NCBI GenBank assembly: GCA_963723105.1
Contig: CAVRPK010000004.1
Span: forward strand, 4,765-68,764
DNA: 64,000 nt
Source of the DNA: an uncultured Candidatus Micrarchaeota archaeon
GTDB lineage: Archaea; Micrarchaeota; Micrarchaeia; Anstonellales; Bilamarchaeaceae
Direction: 5' to 3'
A program made the position numbers and the translations under genes. Numbering within the stretch: the stretch's first letter is position 1; each line of letters opens with the position of its first letter. The notes under the pieces were generated by a model that searched no databases, was not told the DNA's origin, and saw nothing but the letters and a program-made list of their open reading frames with translations. Shown in pieces: positions 7,108-58,962 of this stretch.

Positions 7108-9159
7108 ATGGATTTAATTGTTGCAGAAAAACCTAGGGTAGCGGAAAAGATTGCTAATGCTATAGGTGAATCGGTTAAGAAAAAGTCATACAAAGGAGTC
7201 TATTACTACGAGGCAAAAAGAAACGGGCAAGAGTTTATGGTTGCCCCAGCTGTTGGTCATGTTTATACTCTTGTTGAAAAAGAAAAAACCCGAGGTTACC
7301 CCATTTTTGATATAGAATGGGTGCCTGCTTATGAAGCATCAAAAGAAGCAGCATATACCAAAGGCTATGTAGAGCTTATTCAAAAACTTGGAAAAAGCGC
7401 AGACACTTTCGTCTCAGCTTGCGACTATGATATTGAAGGAAGTACAATTGCATACAATGTATTTCGTTTTGCAACAACTATCCGCGAAGGACAGAGAATG
7501 AAGTTCTCAGCGTTGACTCAGGGAGATCTTGAAGCTGCTTATGATGACCGCGCGGAGTTTGATTATTCTAATGCATATGCTGGTGAAGCAAGGCACATAA
7601 TTGACTGGTATTATGGTATCAATTTAAGCCGGGCTCTTATGGGAGCTCTTCGTGCTGCTCATAGATATAAAGTCATGTCAGTCGGACGTGTTCAGGGACC
7701 TGCACTTTCTCTTTTATCTAATTTAGAATCAAGCATTCGTGCTTTTGTTCCAACTCCTTATTGGGAATTAATTACTAAAATCAAAGATGTAGATTTCAAG
7801 CACAAAAAAGATCGTTTCCTTGATGATGAATCCGCATCAATATCAATGGATAATACCAAGTCTACTGGAAAAGTTTCTAAGGTTGATAAAAAAGAGCAAA
7901 AGATTGCGCCGAACCCTAATTTCGACTTAACTGCTTTGCAGGTTGAAGCATACAAGCTTTTCAAATTCTCTCCATCAAGGACATTGGAACTTTCCCAGCA
8001 TCTTTACGAAGCTTCTCTAATTACTTATCCAAGAACTTCTTCAAATCAAATCCCATCATCGATCAAACTTGGTCCGATTCTGACTGCACTTGAAAAGAAC
8101 AAGGACTATTCAGCATTAATCAAAAAGATCAAAGCAAACAAATGGACAAAACCAATTCAAGGAAAGAAAAAAGATCCAGCACATCCTGCAATTCATCCAA
8201 CTGGCCAAGCTCCCGGTTCCATTGATCCACACCAAAAGAATCTCTATGATCTTATTGTCAAAAGATTTTTGGCATCATTTGCTACTCCTGCAAAGAGAGC
8301 TCGAAACAGAGTTGAAGTTGAAAGCGGCGGCGAGGAATATGCTGCATCTGGAAGCAGAATTGTAGAGCCTGGCTGGACTGAATTTTATGGAAAGTACTAT
8401 ACAACTGAAGATGTTGAGCTTCCTGAATTCAAGGAAGGAGAATCAGTGAAACTTTCCAAAGTGGAAAAAACAAAGAAAGAAACAAAACCACCAAAACGAT
8501 TTACTCAAGCTTCAATCGTTTCCGAACTTGAAAAAAGGCATTTAGGGACCAAGGCAACTCGTTCTGTGGTTGTTGATACGCTTTTCAAAAGAGGATATGC
8601 AGAAGGCAAATCCATTGAAGTGAGTGACTTCGGGCTTAAAGTATCTGATGTTCTTCAGAAATATGCCCCAGAAATCCTTGATGAGAATTTGACAAGATCA
8701 CTTGAAGAAAAAATGGAACTTATTCAAGCCGGCAAACTTGATAAGGAAGAAGTCATTAGTGAGTCTCGGGAGCTTCTGACTGGAATTCTTAATAAGTGGA
8801 AGAAAAACGAAGCAGAAATTGGTGCCAGTCTTCTTGATGCTCTTCAAACTACCCTGGAGCAGGAAAGCTTGGTTGGTCCTTGTGATAAGTGCGATAAGAA
8901 GCTTCGTATAATCAGAATGAAATTCAAAAAACAATTCATTGGTTGCCATGGATATCCAAATTGCAGAAATACCTATCCTCTTCCAACTGGCGCATATGTT
9001 AAGCCAACTGGAAAAGAGTGTACTGCTTGCAGCAAGCCAACTATAAATGTTAAAAAGGGCCGGATTAGATATACTATGTGTATTGATCCGAATTGTCCGT
9101 CAAAAGCAGATTGGCGCAAGAAGAGTGGTAGTCGCAATGAGAAAGATAGCAAATCATGA
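7108..9159 (+). CDS. topA: DNA topoisomerase IA (archaeal TopA/Topo III-like)
   Basis: TOPRIM N-terminus MDLIVAEKPRVAEKIA, acidic cluster ACDYDIEGS, catalytic-Tyr region LITYPRTSS, and C-terminal Cys4 zinc ribbons (CDKCDKK..CHGYPNC and CTAC..CIDPNC). Confidence 0.9.
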   Translation: MDLIVAEKPRVAEKIANAIGESVKKKSYKGVYYYEAKRNGQEFMVAPAVGHVYTLVEKEKTRGYPIFDIEWVPAYEASKEAAYTKGYVELIQKLGKSADTFVSACDYDIEGSTIAYNVFRFATTIREGQRMKFSALTQGDLEAAYDDRAEFDYSNAYAGEARHIIDWYYGINLSRALMGALRAAHRYKVMSVGRVQGPALSLLSNLESSIRAFVPTPYWELITKIKDVDFKHKKDRFLDDESASISMDNTKSTGKVSKVDKKEQKIAPNPNFDLTALQVEAYKLFKFSPSRTLELSQHLYEASLITYPRTSSNQIPSSIKLGPILTALEKNKDYSALIKKIKANKWTKPIQGKKKDPAHPAIHPTGQAPGSIDPHQKNLYDLIVKRFLASFATPAKRARNRVEVESGGEEYAASGSRIVEPGWTEFYGKYYTTEDVELPEFKEGESVKLSKVEKTKKETKPPKRFTQASIVSELEKRHLGTKATRSVVVDTLFKRGYAEGKSIEVSDFGLKVSDVLQKYAPEILDENLTRSLEEKMELIQAGKLDKEEVISESRELLTGILNKWKKNEAEIGASLLDALQTTLEQESLVGPCDKCDKKLRIIRMKFKKQFIGCHGYPNCRNTYPLPTGAYVKPTGKECTACSKPTINVKKGRIRYTMCIDPNCPSKADWRKKSGSRNEKDSKS

Positions 9160-46858: not shown

Positions 46859-46982
46859 CGCCTCGGGGAGGATTCGAACTTCCGGCCTGCTGATGTCTGT
46901 AACTGAATAATCAGTTTTGATCCAACTTTTTCCAAAAGTTGGAATAACAGTCAGCCGCTCTAACCAGCTGAGCTACCGAGGC
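46859..46982 (-). tRNA. tRNA-Asn(GUU) with 50-nt canonical (37/38) intron
   Basis: The minus strand reads GCCTCGG-TA-GCTC-AGCTGGTTA-GAGC-G-GCTGA-CTGTTA. The intron follows at 46895-46944. The 3' exon is A-TCAGC-AGGCC-GGAAG-TTCGAAT-CCTCC-CCGAGGC-G. There is one A:C mismatch in the T stem. Confidence 0.8.
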
Positions 46983-52499: not shown

Positions 52500-53396
52500 A
52501 TGCTCAATGATATCATTATGGCAATTGGAAACACTCCACTAGTCCGAATCAATAAACTGACTCCAAATCCAAAAACAACCATATATGCTAAACTAGAAGG
52601 TTTTAATCCAACTGGAAGTATCAAAGATCGTATTGCTTTGAAGATGATTGAACAGGCAGAAAAAAACGGAGATTTATCAAAAGGAAAAACAATACTTGAG
52701 CCTACTTCTGGAAACACTGGAGTTTCACTAGCAATGATAGGAACTGTCAAAGGTTATGATGTTGAAATTGTCATGAACAGTGCAGTTTCTATTGAAAGGC
52801 GCCAAATGATCCGTGCATTCGGTGCTAAAGTAACTTTGACAGACAGTGACCTTGGAACTGATGGTGCGATTCTAAAAGCCAAAGAACTAGTCAAAAAATA
52901 TCCCGATAAATATTTCATGCCAGATCAGTTTTCTAACGAATACAATAAACTGGCTCACTACAAGACTACTGCCGAAGAAATCTGGAAACAGACAAATGGG
53001 AATGTGGATTATCTGGTTTCATCAATTGGAACATCTGGGACAATAATGGGAGTCGGAAGATATCTGAAAGAAAAAAATCCAAATGTTAAAATTGTTTGCG
53101 CGCACCCTGTCAAGGGCCACTATATCCAGGGCTTGAAAAATATGGATGAGGCAATAGTTCCATCTATTTATGATCCTTCTAAAATTGACGAAACTATCAT
53201 GGTTGAAACTCATGTTGCATTTGAAACTGCGAGAAAAATCGTGAGAAATGAAGGGATTTTTATTGGAATGAGCAGCGGAGCAGCAATGTATGCTGCAATT
53301 GAAATTTCAAAGAAAGCAGAATCTGGAAACATTGTAGTTATATTCCCTGATAGGGGAGAGAAATATCTGAGTACTGGTTTATTTGAAGTAGATTAA
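52500..53396 (+). CDS. cysK: Cysteine synthase / O-acetylserine sulfhydrylase-family PLP enzyme
   Basis: PLP lysine in NPTGSIKDR, plus EPTSGNTG and GMSSGAA. Start moved to ATG 52500. Confidence 0.8.
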   Translation: MLNDIIMAIGNTPLVRINKLTPNPKTTIYAKLEGFNPTGSIKDRIALKMIEQAEKNGDLSKGKTILEPTSGNTGVSLAMIGTVKGYDVEIVMNSAVSIERRQMIRAFGAKVTLTDSDLGTDGAILKAKELVKKYPDKYFMPDQFSNEYNKLAHYKTTAEEIWKQTNGNVDYLVSSIGTSGTIMGVGRYLKEKNPNVKIVCAHPVKGHYIQGLKNMDEAIVPSIYDPSKIDETIMVETHVAFETARKIVRNEGIFIGMSSGAAMYAAIEISKKAESGNIVVIFPDRGEKYLSTGLFEVD

Positions 53397-53812
53397 ACAT
53401 CTAATATTACGGATGCCTTCCATCCTTCTTCCGTTTTTTCGAGTTTGTACATGTGCCAGCTTACTGCTTTAACATCTGTTATCCATTCATGCTTCTCTTG
53501 ATCCAATTCCTCTCCGACTAGTTCTGCTTCAAGTGAATTTCCTGTGATCTTAATTGTATATTTACTAAAAACAAGACATTCGGAATCCTTGTAAAATAGC
53601 AATTCCTGCATGAAATTATGCAACAACCTCTCACGGTCTTTTCCAGAAATCGATATTTTTTTTGTTATTTTTTCTTCTATTGTTTTAAGGTCATCAACCA
53701 TTGAAGCTGTAACTGCTTTTGCGGCACTCTCAAAGAGCTCTTCAAGAGTGTTTCCTGTTGCTTCGAAAGTGACGTCTGCAATTGCGACTCCGTCAACAAA
53801 TTTATATGGCAT
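53393..53812 (-). CDS. Archease (RtcB activator)
   Basis: MPYKFVDGVAIADVTFEATGNTLEELFESAAKA is the archease N-terminus. Start moved to ATG 53812, immediately after the rtcB stop. Confidence 0.85.
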   Translation of the reverse strand: MPYKFVDGVAIADVTFEATGNTLEELFESAAKAVTASMVDDLKTIEEKITKKISISGKDRERLLHNFMQELLFYKDSECLVFSKYTIKITGNSLEAELVGEELDQEKHEWITDVKAVSWHMYKLEKTEEGWKASVILDV

Positions 53813-53813
53813 T

Positions 53814-55271
53814 TTATCCCTTGATATTTCCAATTGGAATAAGCTTTGCAACTTTCTTTGAAATTCCAGCACTAGTTGCAGACTCAATGACTTCGTCTAT
53901 TTTTTTGTATGCTCCGCCTGCTTCTTCTGCCAAACCTTTGAATGATACTGCTTTGATGTAAATTCCTTTTTTCTCCATGTCCTTTTGGAGTTGTTCTCCC
54001 TGATATGTCCTTTTTGCCTGAGCTCTGCTCATAACTCTTCCAGATCCGTGTGCTGTTGTGAACCAAGTATCTGCTGCATTATCCACGCCAGCAAGAAGCC
54101 ATGAACCTGTTTCCATACTTCCTCCAATGAGTATTGGCTGTCCATCCTCACGGTATAACTCTGGAATTTCTTCTCTTCCTGGACCAAATGCTGCAGTTGC
54201 ACCTTTTCTGTGGACTATGAGTTCTTTCATCTCTCCATTAACATTGTGCTTTTCAACTGAAGCGCGATTATGGCATATATCATATATCTGGTGCATTTCA
54301 AGTTCTTCTGCGCTTTTTCCAAACACATTTGCAAATGTTTCTCTAACTCCATGTAATATCGTCTGCCTGTTTGCAAATCCCATGTTTACTGCACAGTTCA
54401 TAGCTGAGAAATAATCCTGCCCTTCTTTTGATTTGAATGGGGCGCATGCAAGTTCTCGATCAAGAATTTTTATCCCGTATTTGCTTTGCATAACATCCAG
54501 GAATAAGTCTAGATAGTCTGATGCAACCTGGTGGCCAAATCCTCTGCTTCCGCAGTGGAACATAATAACTACCTGATCAGGAAATAATCCCCATTTTTTT
54601 GCAAGTTCGCTGTTTTCTATATTCTCTTCTTTGACATGCTGTATCTCAAGGTAGTGATTTCCTGAGCCAAGCGTTCCAACCTGCCCAAGTCCTCTTTTTA
54701 TTGCTTTTTCGCTTACCTTACTTGAATCAGCATTTTCAACAGAACCTTTCATTTCAGTTCTCTCAAGGTCTTCCTCCCATCCAAGTCCTTTTTCAATACA
54801 CCATTTTGAGCCTTGTTCCATCACCTGCTTGAATTCCTGCGGAGAAAGTCTCATTTTACTTTTTCCGCCAACTCCTGCAGGTATCCTCCTAAACAATGTG
54901 TCAACTAGTTCATGGAGTTTGGGTTTAACCTCATCAATTGTCAGATTGGTTCGAATAAGTCTCATACCGCAGTTGATATCAAATCCAATCCCGCCTGGGC
55001 TAATGACTCCCTCTTCAGTATCCATTGCAGCAACCCCGCCAATCGGGAACCCATACCCCGAATGTCCATCTGGCATACAATATGCATAATTGACAATTCC
55101 AGGAAGTGTTGCAACATTTGTTATCTGATCATAAACATGATCGTCCATCTGATCAAGAATTTTTTTGCTTGCAATGATTCTGGCAGGAACTCTCATTCCT
55201 TGTTTGTAATCCTTTGAAATTTCCCAAATATAATCACTAATTTTTGTGAACTGTGGTTTTTTGAAATCCAT
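53814..55271 (-). CDS. rtcB: RNA-splicing ligase RtcB
   Basis: MPDGHSGYGFPIGG, CGSRGFGHQ and TTAHGSGR (guanylylated His region). 485 aa with no intein. Confidence 0.95.
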   Translation of the reverse strand: MDFKKPQFTKISDYIWEISKDYKQGMRVPARIIASKKILDQMDDHVYDQITNVATLPGIVNYAYCMPDGHSGYGFPIGGVAAMDTEEGVISPGGIGFDINCGMRLIRTNLTIDEVKPKLHELVDTLFRRIPAGVGGKSKMRLSPQEFKQVMEQGSKWCIEKGLGWEEDLERTEMKGSVENADSSKVSEKAIKRGLGQVGTLGSGNHYLEIQHVKEENIENSELAKKWGLFPDQVVIMFHCGSRGFGHQVASDYLDLFLDVMQSKYGIKILDRELACAPFKSKEGQDYFSAMNCAVNMGFANRQTILHGVRETFANVFGKSAEELEMHQIYDICHNRASVEKHNVNGEMKELIVHRKGATAAFGPGREEIPELYREDGQPILIGGSMETGSWLLAGVDNAADTWFTTAHGSGRVMSRAQAKRTYQGEQLQKDMEKKGIYIKAVSFKGLAEEAGGAYKKIDEVIESATSAGISKKVAKLIPIGNIKG

Positions 55272-55836: not shown

Positions 55837-56218
55837 ATCTGAATATTTTGTACTATCTGCTGACAAGGGAGAAGCACTAGTTCGCTCACTTATTTCTAAG
55901 ATGCAAGCTCAGGCAAGTGATGCTCCACGGGTCTCTAGGCCTAAATCAAAGCGATCATCAACTTCTCAAAGTTCTTCAGAATCAAAGACAACAAAAAAGA
56001 AAACAGTCAAGAAAAAAGCTGCGAAAAAGAAACAAGCTAAGAGAAAATCAGTGCAAAAGCCTGTTCGAAAAAAACCAGCCACTAAAAAACCTGTAAAAAA
56101 GCCAGTTAAGAAAAAACCAGCGAAAAAGAAGCCAATGCGAAAAAAACCTATCAGGAAACAACTGGTGAAAAAGAAAACAGTCAAAAAAACCAAGAAGAAA
56201 TCCAAAAAGAAGAGATAA
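55820..56218 (+). CDS. Highly basic Lys-rich protein with KKP-repeat tail (histone H1-tail-like)
   Basis: A ~45-aa N-domain is followed by KKKTVKKKAAKKKQAKRK..KKPATKKPVKKPVKKKPAKKKPMRKKP..KKSKKKR. Confidence 0.55.
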   Translation: MKNLIESEYFVLSADKGEALVRSLISKMQAQASDAPRVSRPKSKRSSTSQSSSESKTTKKKTVKKKAAKKKQAKRKSVQKPVRKKPATKKPVKKPVKKKPAKKKPMRKKPIRKQLVKKKTVKKTKKKSKKKR

Positions 56219-56219
56219 A

Positions 56220-57101
56220 ATGTTCTCAAAATTCTTCTTTCTTTCACTTATTCTCCTAACTCTCTCATTTGCTACCATCGATAATCTTTCAATTACTTCA
56301 TCTGTTGATCAATCTGGCGAATCTAACATTCTGATAAAATCTTCATTTTCAAATTCCGAATCTAAAGAAATCTTTCTCAATTTGTCTGCTCCTGTTGATT
56401 CTGTATTTGTAAAAGACAGGAGCGGACTTTCGATTGAACATTCCATTGTCAGCCAAGGAAAAAATTCAATCATAACAGCAACAGTGCCATATGATTATCT
56501 TCAATTTGAAATTTCTTCAAATTCATTTACCATGAAAAACGCATCCCGCTGGGATTATGATTTTTCTATTTCTGCATCTGAGAACATATCCTCTCTTTCA
56601 GCTTCATTATCGCTTCCCAAAGGCGCCAAACTCAAAGGAACTAATGGAGCAGTTGAAGCAACTGATTCACTAATTGTATCATGGAGTACGAATGATCTTG
56701 ATACTAATCATAAATCTAGGATGTATGTGTCCTATGAGCTTTTTGAGGTTGAAGATGACTTAACCCCTATCATCATGCTTGGAGCTGGATGTGTTCTTGC
56801 GATACTAGTAATATCATATCTAAGAAATTCAAAAACAAAAACCACTGTTGCTATGCCTAAAACAGATTTCCTAGAATCCCACAGTTTATTCAAAACCTTA
56901 GAAGAGAATGATAAGGAAATAGTCCGTGAAATCTACAGGCAAAAAGGCAAAACAACTCAATCCCATCTTTATCTGCAAACTCATATTGCTAAGGCAACCC
57001 TTTCTAGAAGAATCAATTCACTGGAAAATCGTGGCATATTAAAAAAATCACAAAAAGGCAACAGGAATCTGATCACTCTGACTGATGTTTTTAAGCAGTA
57101 A
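56220..57101 (+). CDS. Membrane-anchored winged-helix regulator (paralog of 17743..18576)
   Basis: Signal FFFLSLILLTLSFA, a beta-rich ectodomain, TM IIMLGAGCVLAILVISYL, and C-terminal LEENDKEIVREIYRQKGKTTQSHLYLQTHIAKATLSRRINSLENRGIL. Confidence 0.65.
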   Translation: MFSKFFFLSLILLTLSFATIDNLSITSSVDQSGESNILIKSSFSNSESKEIFLNLSAPVDSVFVKDRSGLSIEHSIVSQGKNSIITATVPYDYLQFEISSNSFTMKNASRWDYDFSISASENISSLSASLSLPKGAKLKGTNGAVEATDSLIVSWSTNDLDTNHKSRMYVSYELFEVEDDLTPIIMLGAGCVLAILVISYLRNSKTKTTVAMPKTDFLESHSLFKTLEENDKEIVREIYRQKGKTTQSHLYLQTHIAKATLSRRINSLENRGILKKSQKGNRNLITLTDVFKQ

Positions 57102-57236
57102 TGTTTCGCTATTGTTTCACACTTCTTCTTTTTCTTCGTCGTAACTTGTTCCACTTGTTTCAGGGAAAATATAAATACCGTTCCAGGAAACTTCCATCAA
57201 TCATCTGGCAGTTTTGTGCAGATGGGGGTGAAAAAT

Positions 57237-58157
57237 ATGGATTATAAATTTGTGATACTTGCACTTTTGCTTGTACCTGTGGCTTCTGCCAATCCCGGTA
57301 TGTTTGATATGGAAAAGGGGGATGGTCTTGAAGCTGCGATGGACAATGTGGCGTGTAGGGCTGGATTTACAGTTGGGGTTCTTGAATCTCATATATCAAT
57401 TCTTGGAGCAGATGAACTTCAGGATGACGTTGATGAGATTGAAGAAGATGTAGATGAACTTCAAGAGCTTGCTGATGAAGGTGATGTTTCTGGATTTAGG
57501 GAACATGTGCATGGAGATTATTCACAGCACATGAAAAATGCCAGACAAAATACTCTTCAATACAGGAACCAGGGCAATATGACTCATGGTGTCAAAGCCC
57601 AGCTCCGGGATGCCTATAATGGCCTTCATGAAGATTTCGAGGCATGCAACTCTGAATCTATGGGAAGATTCGCACAGGCAAAAATTGACGGTTATGAGAA
57701 AGTCCTTGAGCGAGCAGATGATGTGTCAGAGGATCTTTCTGAAAAAGGAGTAGATACAACTGCGCTTGATGCTCTTATAGCAGATGCAGAGGATGAAATT
57801 GTTGATCCATTGAAGGATGCTGTTGATGAAGCTGAAACTACAGAAGAGCTTCGTGAAGCACTTGGTTCCTATTGCCTGTTCAATGGCTGTACAAATGGCA
57901 TCAACTTCCACTTTGCAGCTAACTGGCAAATCGAAAAGCTTGATTCAATCCTTGATCTGATTGAGGATGATGCAGAAGAAGCAGGACTTTCTGATGATTG
58001 GGATGCTGCAGATGACTATCTAGTTACTGCATCTGAAAATCTTGAGGATGTCGGTACAGACCAGTATGAAGGAACTGAACATGATGATGTTTGGGACAAC
58101 ATTCGCTTGGCGTCTGGTGCTCTCAAGGATATCATATCTACACTGAGGTCAGGATGA
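57237..58157 (+). CDS. Secreted acidic helical protein
   Basis: Start moved to MDYKFVILALLLVPVASA, with GGGGGTG 7 nt upstream. Asp/Glu-rich helical body. Confidence 0.6.
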   Translation: MDYKFVILALLLVPVASANPGMFDMEKGDGLEAAMDNVACRAGFTVGVLESHISILGADELQDDVDEIEEDVDELQELADEGDVSGFREHVHGDYSQHMKNARQNTLQYRNQGNMTHGVKAQLRDAYNGLHEDFEACNSESMGRFAQAKIDGYEKVLERADDVSEDLSEKGVDTTALDALIADAEDEIVDPLKDAVDEAETTEELREALGSYCLFNGCTNGINFHFAANWQIEKLDSILDLIEDDAEEAGLSDDWDAADDYLVTASENLEDVGTDQYEGTEHDDVWDNIRLASGALKDIISTLRSG

Positions 58158-58717: not shown

Positions 58718-58751
58718 TTTAAAAATTCTTTTTCTCAAATGCATTTTCCAA

Positions 58752-58962
58752 GCTCCTGTAGTCTAGTGACCTTTTTGACTTACGTCCTTCTAAGGGCAAA
58801 AATCTCAACCAAAAAGCCCTGAGGAAAACGAGTCAAATGGTTGGACATCCCGGTCAAGGATATCAGACTCTCAGCAAACTTTTAGGAAAAGTTTGATCAA
58901 AACTAATTAGCTAAAAGTTTGAGGGAACTCTGAGGACCCGGGTTCGAATCCCGGCGGGAGCA
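58752..58962 (+). tRNA. tRNA-Glu(CUC) with two introns (D-loop and canonical 37/38)
   Basis: Exon 1 is GCTCCTG-TA-GTCT-AGT, followed by an 82-nt intron at 58768-58849. Exon 2 is CCGGTCAA-GGAT-A-TCAGA-CTCTCA, followed by a 54-nt intron at 58874-58927. Exon 3 is C-TCTGA-GGAC-CCGGG-TTCGAAT-CCCGG-CGGGAGC-A. The mature tRNA is 75 nt. Splice boundaries are good to about 2 nt. Confidence 0.75.

Follow-up and report, generated by a model that had tools for sequence, protein, structure and literature searches.

Positions 58752-58962 of the window (the whole stretch of DNA analysed here, 64,000 nt) very probably represent a genuine tRNA-Glu(CUC) gene with two protein-spliced introns, one in the D-loop and one beside the anticodon. 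Such a gene had been proposed in a preliminary description of this DNA. The observation as such is confirmed, and its interpretation is supported with a probable shift of the D-loop intron by 1 nt. The evidence consists of the anatomy of the sequence, covariation among related genes, orthologues with an empty site, and the presence of the splicing enzymes. The parts of the gene are:

58718..58725, plus strand: putative TATA-like box TTTAAAAA, located 34 to 27 nt before the first nucleotide of the tRNA
58752..58766, plus strand: exon 1, tRNA positions 1-15, comprising the acceptor 5' strand GCTCCTG, U8 A9, the D-stem 5' strand GTCT, and A14 G15 (boundary from the bulge-helix-bulge cut rule)
58767..58848, plus strand: intron 1, 82 nt, in the D-loop, probably at 15/16 (relaxed HBh' motif)
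58849..58873, plus strand: exon 2, tRNA positions 16-37, comprising the D-loop remainder CCCGGTCAA, the D-stem 3' strand GGAT, A26, the anticodon stem 5' strand TCAGA, C32 U33, CUC, and A37 (sequence reading and ARAGORN)
58874..58927, plus strand: intron 2, 54 nt, at the canonical position 37/38 (strict hBHBh' motif)
58928..58962, plus strand: exon 3, tRNA positions 38-73, comprising C38, the anticodon stem 3' strand, the variable loop GGAC, the T arm CCGGG-TTCGAAT-CCCGG, the acceptor 3' strand CGGGAGC and the discriminator A; CCA is not encoded (sequence reading and ARAGORN)

When the segments 58752-58767, 58850-58873, and 58928-58962 are joined, a sequence of 75 nt results which ARAGORN calls as tRNA-Glu(ctc), with an acceptor stem of 7 bp, a D stem of 4 bp, an anticodon stem of 5 bp, and a T stem of 5 bp. 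The cloverleaf is fully paired, its acceptor, anticodon, and T stems are devoid of mismatches, and it forms upon removal of 82 nt from the D-loop and of 54 nt after position 37. The anticodon loop CU-CUC-AC has 7 nt with U33 in place, and the variable region has 4 nt. The genome carries one uninterrupted tRNA-Glu(UUC), with the D arm GTCTAGTCCGGTCAAGGAT, from which the spliced D arm differs by at most 1 nt. The CUC anticodon in a loop of 7 nt, the D-loop, which is of the type found in archaeal tRNA-Glu, and the short variable loop together point to tRNA-Glu as the identity of the product. Two introns, a spliced product of 75 nt, a D-loop typical for archaeal tRNA-Glu, and a mature share of 36% of the gene (75 of 211 nt) had all been claimed previously, and they are reproduced here.

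The unspliced locus 58752-58962 was missed both by ARAGORN and by the Rfam tRNA model. At permissive thresholds, Rfam recovered the T arm alone, through partial matches of tmRNA-like and mascRNA-like type. Deletion of one intron at a time led ARAGORN to the wrong calls Ser(gga) and Val(tac), and its placement of introns at this locus is therefore unreliable.

Intron 2 has the geometry of a textbook strict motif as set out in PMC4090602. The anticodon stem (58863-58867:58929-58933) serves as helix h. The central helix H (58868-58871:58922-58925, 4 bp) pairs positions 32-35 (CUCU) with AGGG and is flanked on opposite strands by two closed bulges of 3 nt each, a 5' bulge at 58872-58874 (CAG, that is C36-A37-G) and a 3' bulge at 58926-58928 (AAC, that is A-A-C38). 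On the intron side, the motif is closed by helix h' with 11 bp (58875-58885:58911-58921, CAAACTTTTAG:CTAAAAGTTTG). The MFE fold of the whole precursor gives a near-identical structure for this intron. The geometry is kept in 19 orthologues and paralogues whose introns measure 28-151 nt, and the central helix follows the anticodon, being CTCT:AGGG or CTCT:GGAG versus CTTT:AAAG in UUC genes. The canonical intron at 58874-58927 stands as it was first described. It also served to calibrate the cut rule, by which each 3-nt bulge is cleaved behind its second nucleotide; at intron 2, this rule yields the required anticodon loop of 7 nt.

The interior of intron 2 consists of the hairpin AAACTTTT-AGG-AAAAGTTT and the tail GATCAAAAC (query positions 119-172). 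This hairpin-plus-tail interior is a second repeated intron module, which is found elsewhere in the same genome (C1:224945-224998, C2:112867-112916, and C1:149484-149523), and more copies exist in relatives.

Intron 1 shows a related but relaxed arrangement. Its helix H (58761-58764:58843-58846) pairs GTCT, tRNA positions 10-13, with GGAC at the 3' end of the intron. It is followed by a 5' bulge of 3 nt at 58765-58767 (AGT; AGN among relatives) and by the 4-bp helix h' (58768-58771:58839-58842, GACC:GGTT), so that the 5' site lies in a 3-nt bulge between two helices. Further inside are the helices 58774-58781:58830-58837, 58785-58789:58821-58825, and 58793-58797:58816-58820. The 3' "bulge" at 58847-58849 (ATC) is open and leads directly into exon 2. 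Folded without constraints, the entire 211-nt precursor has an MFE structure (-74.3 kcal/mol) in which the acceptor, anticodon, and T stems appear together with H, the AGT bulge, h', and the three nested inner helices. This structure contains the pairing of TTTGACT with AGTCAAA (58774-58780 with 58831-58837) which had been noticed at the outset, and this pairing changes from AU to GC in 6 of 17 relatives.

Covariation was analyzed in 17 genes from congeneric genomes, each with a homologous intron at this D-loop position (12 orthologous tRNA-Glu(CUC), two tRNA-Glu(UUC), two tRNA-Gly(CCC), and one tRNA-Gln(UUG)). From a MAFFT alignment of these, RNAalifold independently predicted H and h' split by the 3-nt bulge. 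Over the full structure of intron 1, 87% of the cells are paired and 12 pairs have changed on both sides. None of 500 column shuffles reached the observed pairing values, and in registers slid by 1-3 columns at most 51% of the cells pair. Compensatory changes affect h' (GACC:GGTT/GGTC, AACC:GGTT, AAAC:GTTT, AGCC:GGCT, and GGCC:GGCC) as well as the central helix H (ATCT:GGAT).

No conserved helix closing the 3' site of intron 1 was found among the related genes; the site is left unclosed because U8 A9 cannot pair with C17 C17a. With no second outer helix h at this site, intron 1 belongs to the relaxed HBh' (bulge-helix-loop) class, which requires an endonuclease of broad specificity. The MFE fold contains a competing small hairpin, ATCC:GGAT (58847-58850:58858-58861), in which the 3' site would be hidden. 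We considered this hairpin as a closing helix and rejected it, as it is not conserved in relatives. A reading of the TGAGG / CCTTCT core as a C/D-box or K-turn was likewise discarded, as inspection revealed neither a C box (RUGAUGA) nor tandem G.A pairs.

The D-loop intron had been placed at 58768-58849. Its length and its type of position hold, while the exact junction probably needs correction: the more probable coordinates are 58767-58848, between positions 15 and 16, with C16 in the mature tRNA. The two candidate introns have identical lengths, and the tRNAs differ in nucleotide 16 alone (C versus U). Applied to intron 1, the bulge rule reads AG|N...NN|N, which is AG|U...AU|C in this gene. 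The alternative, an intron at exactly 58768-58849 between positions 16 and 17 and a mature tRNA with U16 from exon 1, conflicts with the cut rule as calibrated at intron 2 and with the conserved H/bulge/h' geometry, both of which lead to 15/16, even though it would render the entire D arm GTCTAGTCCGGTCAAGGAT identical to that of the intronless tRNA-Glu(UUC) from the same genome. Nucleotide frequencies argue in the same direction. The nucleotide after AG is distributed as T9 G8 C1 A1 among 19 intron-bearing genes, and the nucleotide before CCGG as C10 A5 T4, to be compared with C7 T6 A4 G0 at position 16 of 17 intronless Glu genes. The nucleotide before CCGG fits position 16 of the intronless genes (p = 0.63), whereas the one after AG differs from it (p about 0.005; for G alone, 8/19 versus 0/17, Fisher p = 0.003), these p-values being indicative only because the sequences are phylogenetically related. 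In the closest relatives, C is constant before CCGG and the nucleotide after AG is variable (T, T, A), while one near pair fits 16/17: the intron-minus gene of G021 has C16, and the intron-plus gene of G018 has C straight after AG. We regard the junction at 16/17 as unlikely and use 58767-58848 in what follows. A strict motif placed at the 58768-58849 junction was also tried; its helix H would be TCTA:GACA with two mismatches, and the register 1 nt upstream was preferred.

Orthologues with an empty site exist. In at least seven congeneric genomes, exon 1 is directly joined to exon 2 (GTCTAGNCCGGTCAAGGAT, that is GTCTAG-N-CCGGTCAAGGAT), and one of these intron-minus genes scores 52.9 bits on the Rfam tRNA model. 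The orthologues L063, L057, and L056 gave no Rfam match, presumably owing to other introns. Two protein genes, 56169-57098 and 57102-58154, are located upstream of the tRNA in the window, and the same two genes precede it in five intron-minus and six intron-plus genomes. The two forms are thus alleles of one orthologous locus and not paralogues. Gain or loss at this tRNA-Glu site is seen, as the same flanking genes occur with and without the intron, and a maximum-likelihood tree of a neighbour gene implies at least two changes of the D-loop intron state, which is indicative, as it is based on one gene and 12 taxa. The proposed non-canonical D-loop intron of 82 nt is thus borne out by its relaxed splice motif, by compensatory changes, and by empty-site orthologues.

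The same data bear on the question of whether the 82 nt are removed at all. One could imagine that the canonical intron alone is excised and that the 82 nt persist in the tRNA, where GUCU:GGAC would close a giant D-loop and ATCCCGGTCAAGGAT would serve as an additional linker. The GUCU:GGAC helix is indeed stable and conserved, but a 3-nt bulge and an adjoining 4-bp helix, both conserved, mark an endonuclease site and not a D-loop. Moreover, in the orthologues that lack the intron the D arm is normal and has G18 G19 within CCGGTCAA, elements which would be displaced in the retained form. We know of no precedent for a functional tRNA with a giant retained insert in its D-loop, and we consider retention hardly conceivable.

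Several related loci deviate from the arrangement in the window. A close relative (L056, G052:C2, about 7447-7477) has a mini-intron of 33 nt at the same D-loop site, the ends of which are as in the window (AGA-GGCC...GGCC-GGAC-ATC). In L055 (G045:C79), the D-loop intron has about 97 nt with an unrelated interior. In both genomes, the splice-site ends are retained and the interior is deleted or replaced. Some tRNA-Glu(CUC) orthologues, namely L007, L011, L019, and L023 (from G011, G002, G008, and G015), are additionally interrupted in the T-loop by a third intron, which follows GGGTTCAAA. In L058 (G049:C6) and L061 (G033:C2), the tRNA 5' end (GCTCCTGT...) is partly repeated in the leader upstream of tRNA-Glu, and a hairpin comes after this repeat. 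Two loci, L002 (G013:C14:4-214) and L004 (G024:C30:1-138), are 100% identical to the window over the tRNA locus including both introns. Each of them is at a contig end, and the adjacent protein genes of G013 show only 77-91% amino-acid identity to those of the window. These features point to assembly breaks or chimeras at a sequence which the strains have in common, or to a very recent exchange of the tRNA locus.

The two enzymes of the ligation step which had been reported 3.5 kb upstream of the tRNA were confirmed by Pfam; they are encoded on the opposite strand:

53814..55271, minus strand: rtcB (tRNA-splicing ligase), 485 aa; Pfam PF01139, E = 8.3e-168, full-length
53393..53887, minus strand: archease (RtcB activator), open reading frame as listed, the true start being probably just after the rtcB stop; Pfam PF01951, E = 8.7e-39

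The endonuclease of broad specificity that was expected elsewhere in the genome is probably encoded by the frame G000:C2:117493-118671 (392 codons, 389 aa from the first Met), a full-length homologue of the epsilon2 EndA from ARMAN-2. Its residues 5-389 align to residues 8-387 of 4fz2_A (E = 3.7e-131). The motifs FRIYFPG, H..H, and KKTFILA (containing Y, H, and K, respectively) are conserved, and so are K224 (the K in VIKTGFKFG) and D357 (the D in AISDRES), two residues needed for dimerisation of the epsilon2 enzyme (PMC3239211). Judged by these features, the protein is likely to be a three-unit splicing endonuclease of the epsilon2 type, and its match to the ARMAN-2 enzyme is also the basis on which we would assign the genome to Micrarchaeota. 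The structure of ARMAN-2 EndA is available (4FZ2; PMC3488258), and the enzyme was shown in vitro to cut both strict and relaxed motifs (PMC3239211, PMC12397907). Because the 3' site of intron 1 has no outer helix, its cleavage would rely on this ability to accept relaxed substrates, which was demonstrated for other substrates (pre-tRNA-Cys 59/60; PMC3239211). A second, small EndA-like protein (162-170 aa; G000:C2:206076-206588) is encoded outside the window. It has a match to the catalytic domain PF01974 (37.7 bits), and its best solved relative is the alpha4 EndA from M. jannaschii (E = 5.5e-10).

For the gene as a whole, we infer transcription, cleavage at exactly these phosphates, and ligation in the following manner. 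Transcription would probably start from the TATA-like box about 30 nt upstream and yield a precursor of about 211 nt. We take the box at 58718..58725 to be a putative archaeal promoter; an A/T box of like type is found at equal upstream distance in the orthologous genes of 18 other genomes. In the precursor, the anticodon region and the 3' end of intron 2 would form the strict bulge-helix-bulge motif. At its 3' end, intron 1 has a mimic of the D-stem 3' strand, GGAC, to which GUCU (positions 10-13) would bind. The 5' site of intron 1 would thereby be exposed in a bulge of 3 nt (A14 G15 | U) flanked by two helices, with its 3' site located 2 nt past the central helix in an unclosed loop. The three-unit epsilon2 endonuclease may then cut all four sites, and the three exons may be ligated by RtcB with archease, to be followed by the addition of CCA. 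After splicing, the D stem would refold with its true 3' strand GGAU. The predicted exon joins are ...GUCUAG to (N)CCGGUCAA and ...CUCUCA to CUCUGA.

A different view would be that the gene is a pseudogene, the tRNA having been inactivated by an 82-nt repeat insert, with GAG being read by tRNA-Glu(UUC) alone. The insert in the D-loop does belong to a multi-copy family (see below), and an intronless tRNA-Glu(UUC) is present in the same genome. However, the exons are intact and nearly invariant in at least 12 insert-carrying genomes, in which the interior of the insert diverges; the splice motif at the ends of the insert is kept by compensatory change; the acceptor, anticodon, and T stems are perfect; the promoter box is conserved; and the matching endonuclease is retained in the same genomes. 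We thus consider inactivation very improbable and treat the gene as functional.

Intron 1 is a member of a family of structured introns of about 80 nt, which occurs in at least nine tRNA species and at three positions of the tRNA. Its interior is homologous to introns at 37/38 of tRNA-Asn(GUU), Leu(CAA), His(GUG), Val(GAC), Gln(UUG), and Pro, and members are also found among T-loop introns, as in the tRNA-Glu(CUC) orthologue of G008. Overall, the hosts are tRNAs for Glu, Gly, Gln, Asn, Leu, His, Val, and Pro (identities read by hand from the anticodon loops), with insertions at D-loop, 37/38, and T-loop sites. Homologous introns thus reside in different tRNAs and at different positions, as in a transposed family. 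The family alignment (A2) comprises 30 sequences, and the element itself consists of three helices nested about a GGGCAAAAA...AAAAAGCCC hairpin. With a covariance model of the family (R1), a single copy is detected in the genome under study (G000), and an nhmmer profile search of this genome likewise returned no paralogue besides the copy at 58767-58848. Copies are present in 33 of 40 congeneric genomes (0-21 each). In a sample of 121 genomes of the order, matches were confined to the same GTDB family (21 genomes, 9 of 41 genera). The D-loop copies are restricted to tRNAs with a D arm starting with GTCTAG (Glu, Gln, Gly), a sequence which pairs with the element's own 3' end (GGAC). This restriction would be consistent with a choice of target by base-pairing, for example by reverse splicing, or by ligation followed by reverse transcription or recombination. 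In L066 (G102:C6:19262-19572), at least four head-to-tail copies of the family core with a period of 77 nt are located in a tRNA intron at a contig end, which could reflect either a real tandem amplification or an effect of the assembly.

We see an even chance that the D-loop intron, rather than being a passive spacer, is a copy of an element of about 80 nt which can pass, at the DNA or RNA level, from one tRNA gene to another inside a single GTDB family of Micrarchaeota. The apparent mobility of this structured family is inferential and reaches past the finding on tRNA-Glu. Within the literature available to us, a search for publications on the mobility of tRNA introns in Micrarchaeota found none beyond the ARMAN-2 papers. 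If true, the element would be well suited to studying the spread of tRNA introns in archaea, which is an unsolved question.

The assembly G000, from a small DPANN archaeon of Micrarchaeota type, has 1.12 Mb in eight contigs, with 39% GC and a completeness of 66% by marker estimate. A second copy of the CUC exons is absent from this assembly, and the gene is apparently the sole tRNA-Glu(CUC) gene of the genome, a provisional statement since the assembly is incomplete (66%). GAG accounts for 31% of the Glu codons in the long open frames of the genome. Standard tools detect about 20-27 tRNAs genome-wide, many of which carry introns, so that hidden, interrupted tRNA genes are the rule in this genome, and probably about half of the tRNA set is likewise hidden from such tools. 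The window contains a further intron-containing tRNA at 46859-46982 on the minus strand (Rfam tRNA, 55.2 bits), which ARAGORN assigns as Asn(gtt) with an intron of 50 nt.

A GAG-specific tRNA, apparently the only one of its genome, thus escapes both ARAGORN and Rfam, and tRNAs hidden by introns bias estimates of completeness and of codon capacity for such DPANN genomes. Since one and the same tRNA occurs with no D-loop intron or with one of 33 nt, 82 nt, or about 97 nt, the orthologues form a series of natural substrates for the epsilon2 endonuclease. They also provide an orthologous presence/absence case in which the gain and loss of archaeal tRNA introns can be studied.

With respect to known systems, the phenomenon is not new: multi-intron tRNAs in Micrarchaeota, relaxed motifs, and related introns across tRNAs are already established. 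The tRNA-Glu(CUC) gene is a well-supported example of an archaeal tRNA spliced by proteins, which is mechanistically ordinary, if extreme. Canonical archaeal introns with a bulge-helix-bulge motif at 37/38 are reportedly exemplified by tRNA-Trp from Haloferax volcanii and tRNA-Met from Methanocaldococcus jannaschii, as Marck and Grosjean are said to have described in 2003. Intron 2 has the same geometry, with positions 32-35 paired, two 3-nt bulges, and a central helix of 4 bp; nothing essential differs, its interior being the repeated hairpin-plus-tail module.

The closest parallel in enzyme type is ARMAN-2 (Candidatus Micrarchaeum acidiphilum), for which disrupted tRNA genes with multiple and non-canonical introns have been described together with the epsilon2 endonuclease (Fujishima et al. 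2011, PMC3239211). The genome analysed here shares the lineage-type enzyme (full-length match to 4FZ2), the combination of strict motifs at 37/38 with relaxed motifs at non-canonical sites, and the large share of interrupted tRNA genes. The examples studied in vitro for ARMAN-2 are tRNA-Ile(UAU) at 37/38 and tRNA-Cys at 59/60 (hBH type), and T-loop introns are included in the figures (PMC3239211). Unlike these, intron 1 interrupts the D-loop (15/16), its motif is of the mirror-image form HBh', and it is much longer (82 nt) than the tested substrates (13-25 nt).

The Thermoproteales are the second point of comparison, as far as their multiple-intron tRNA genes and "transposed" intron families are covered in the account of PMC4090602 (Sugahara et al. 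2008; Fujishima et al. 2010). According to that account, they share with our case several introns per tRNA and relaxed motifs of the HBh' and hBH types, and the occurrence of the intron 1 family in different tRNAs and at different sites parallels their "transposed" introns (PMC4090602). They differ in belonging to another phylum, in using an (alpha-beta)2 endonuclease in place of the epsilon2 type, and in having short introns, whereas members of the present family share an internal structure of about 80 nt, conserved as three nested covarying helices, and are present or absent at one orthologous locus within a genus.
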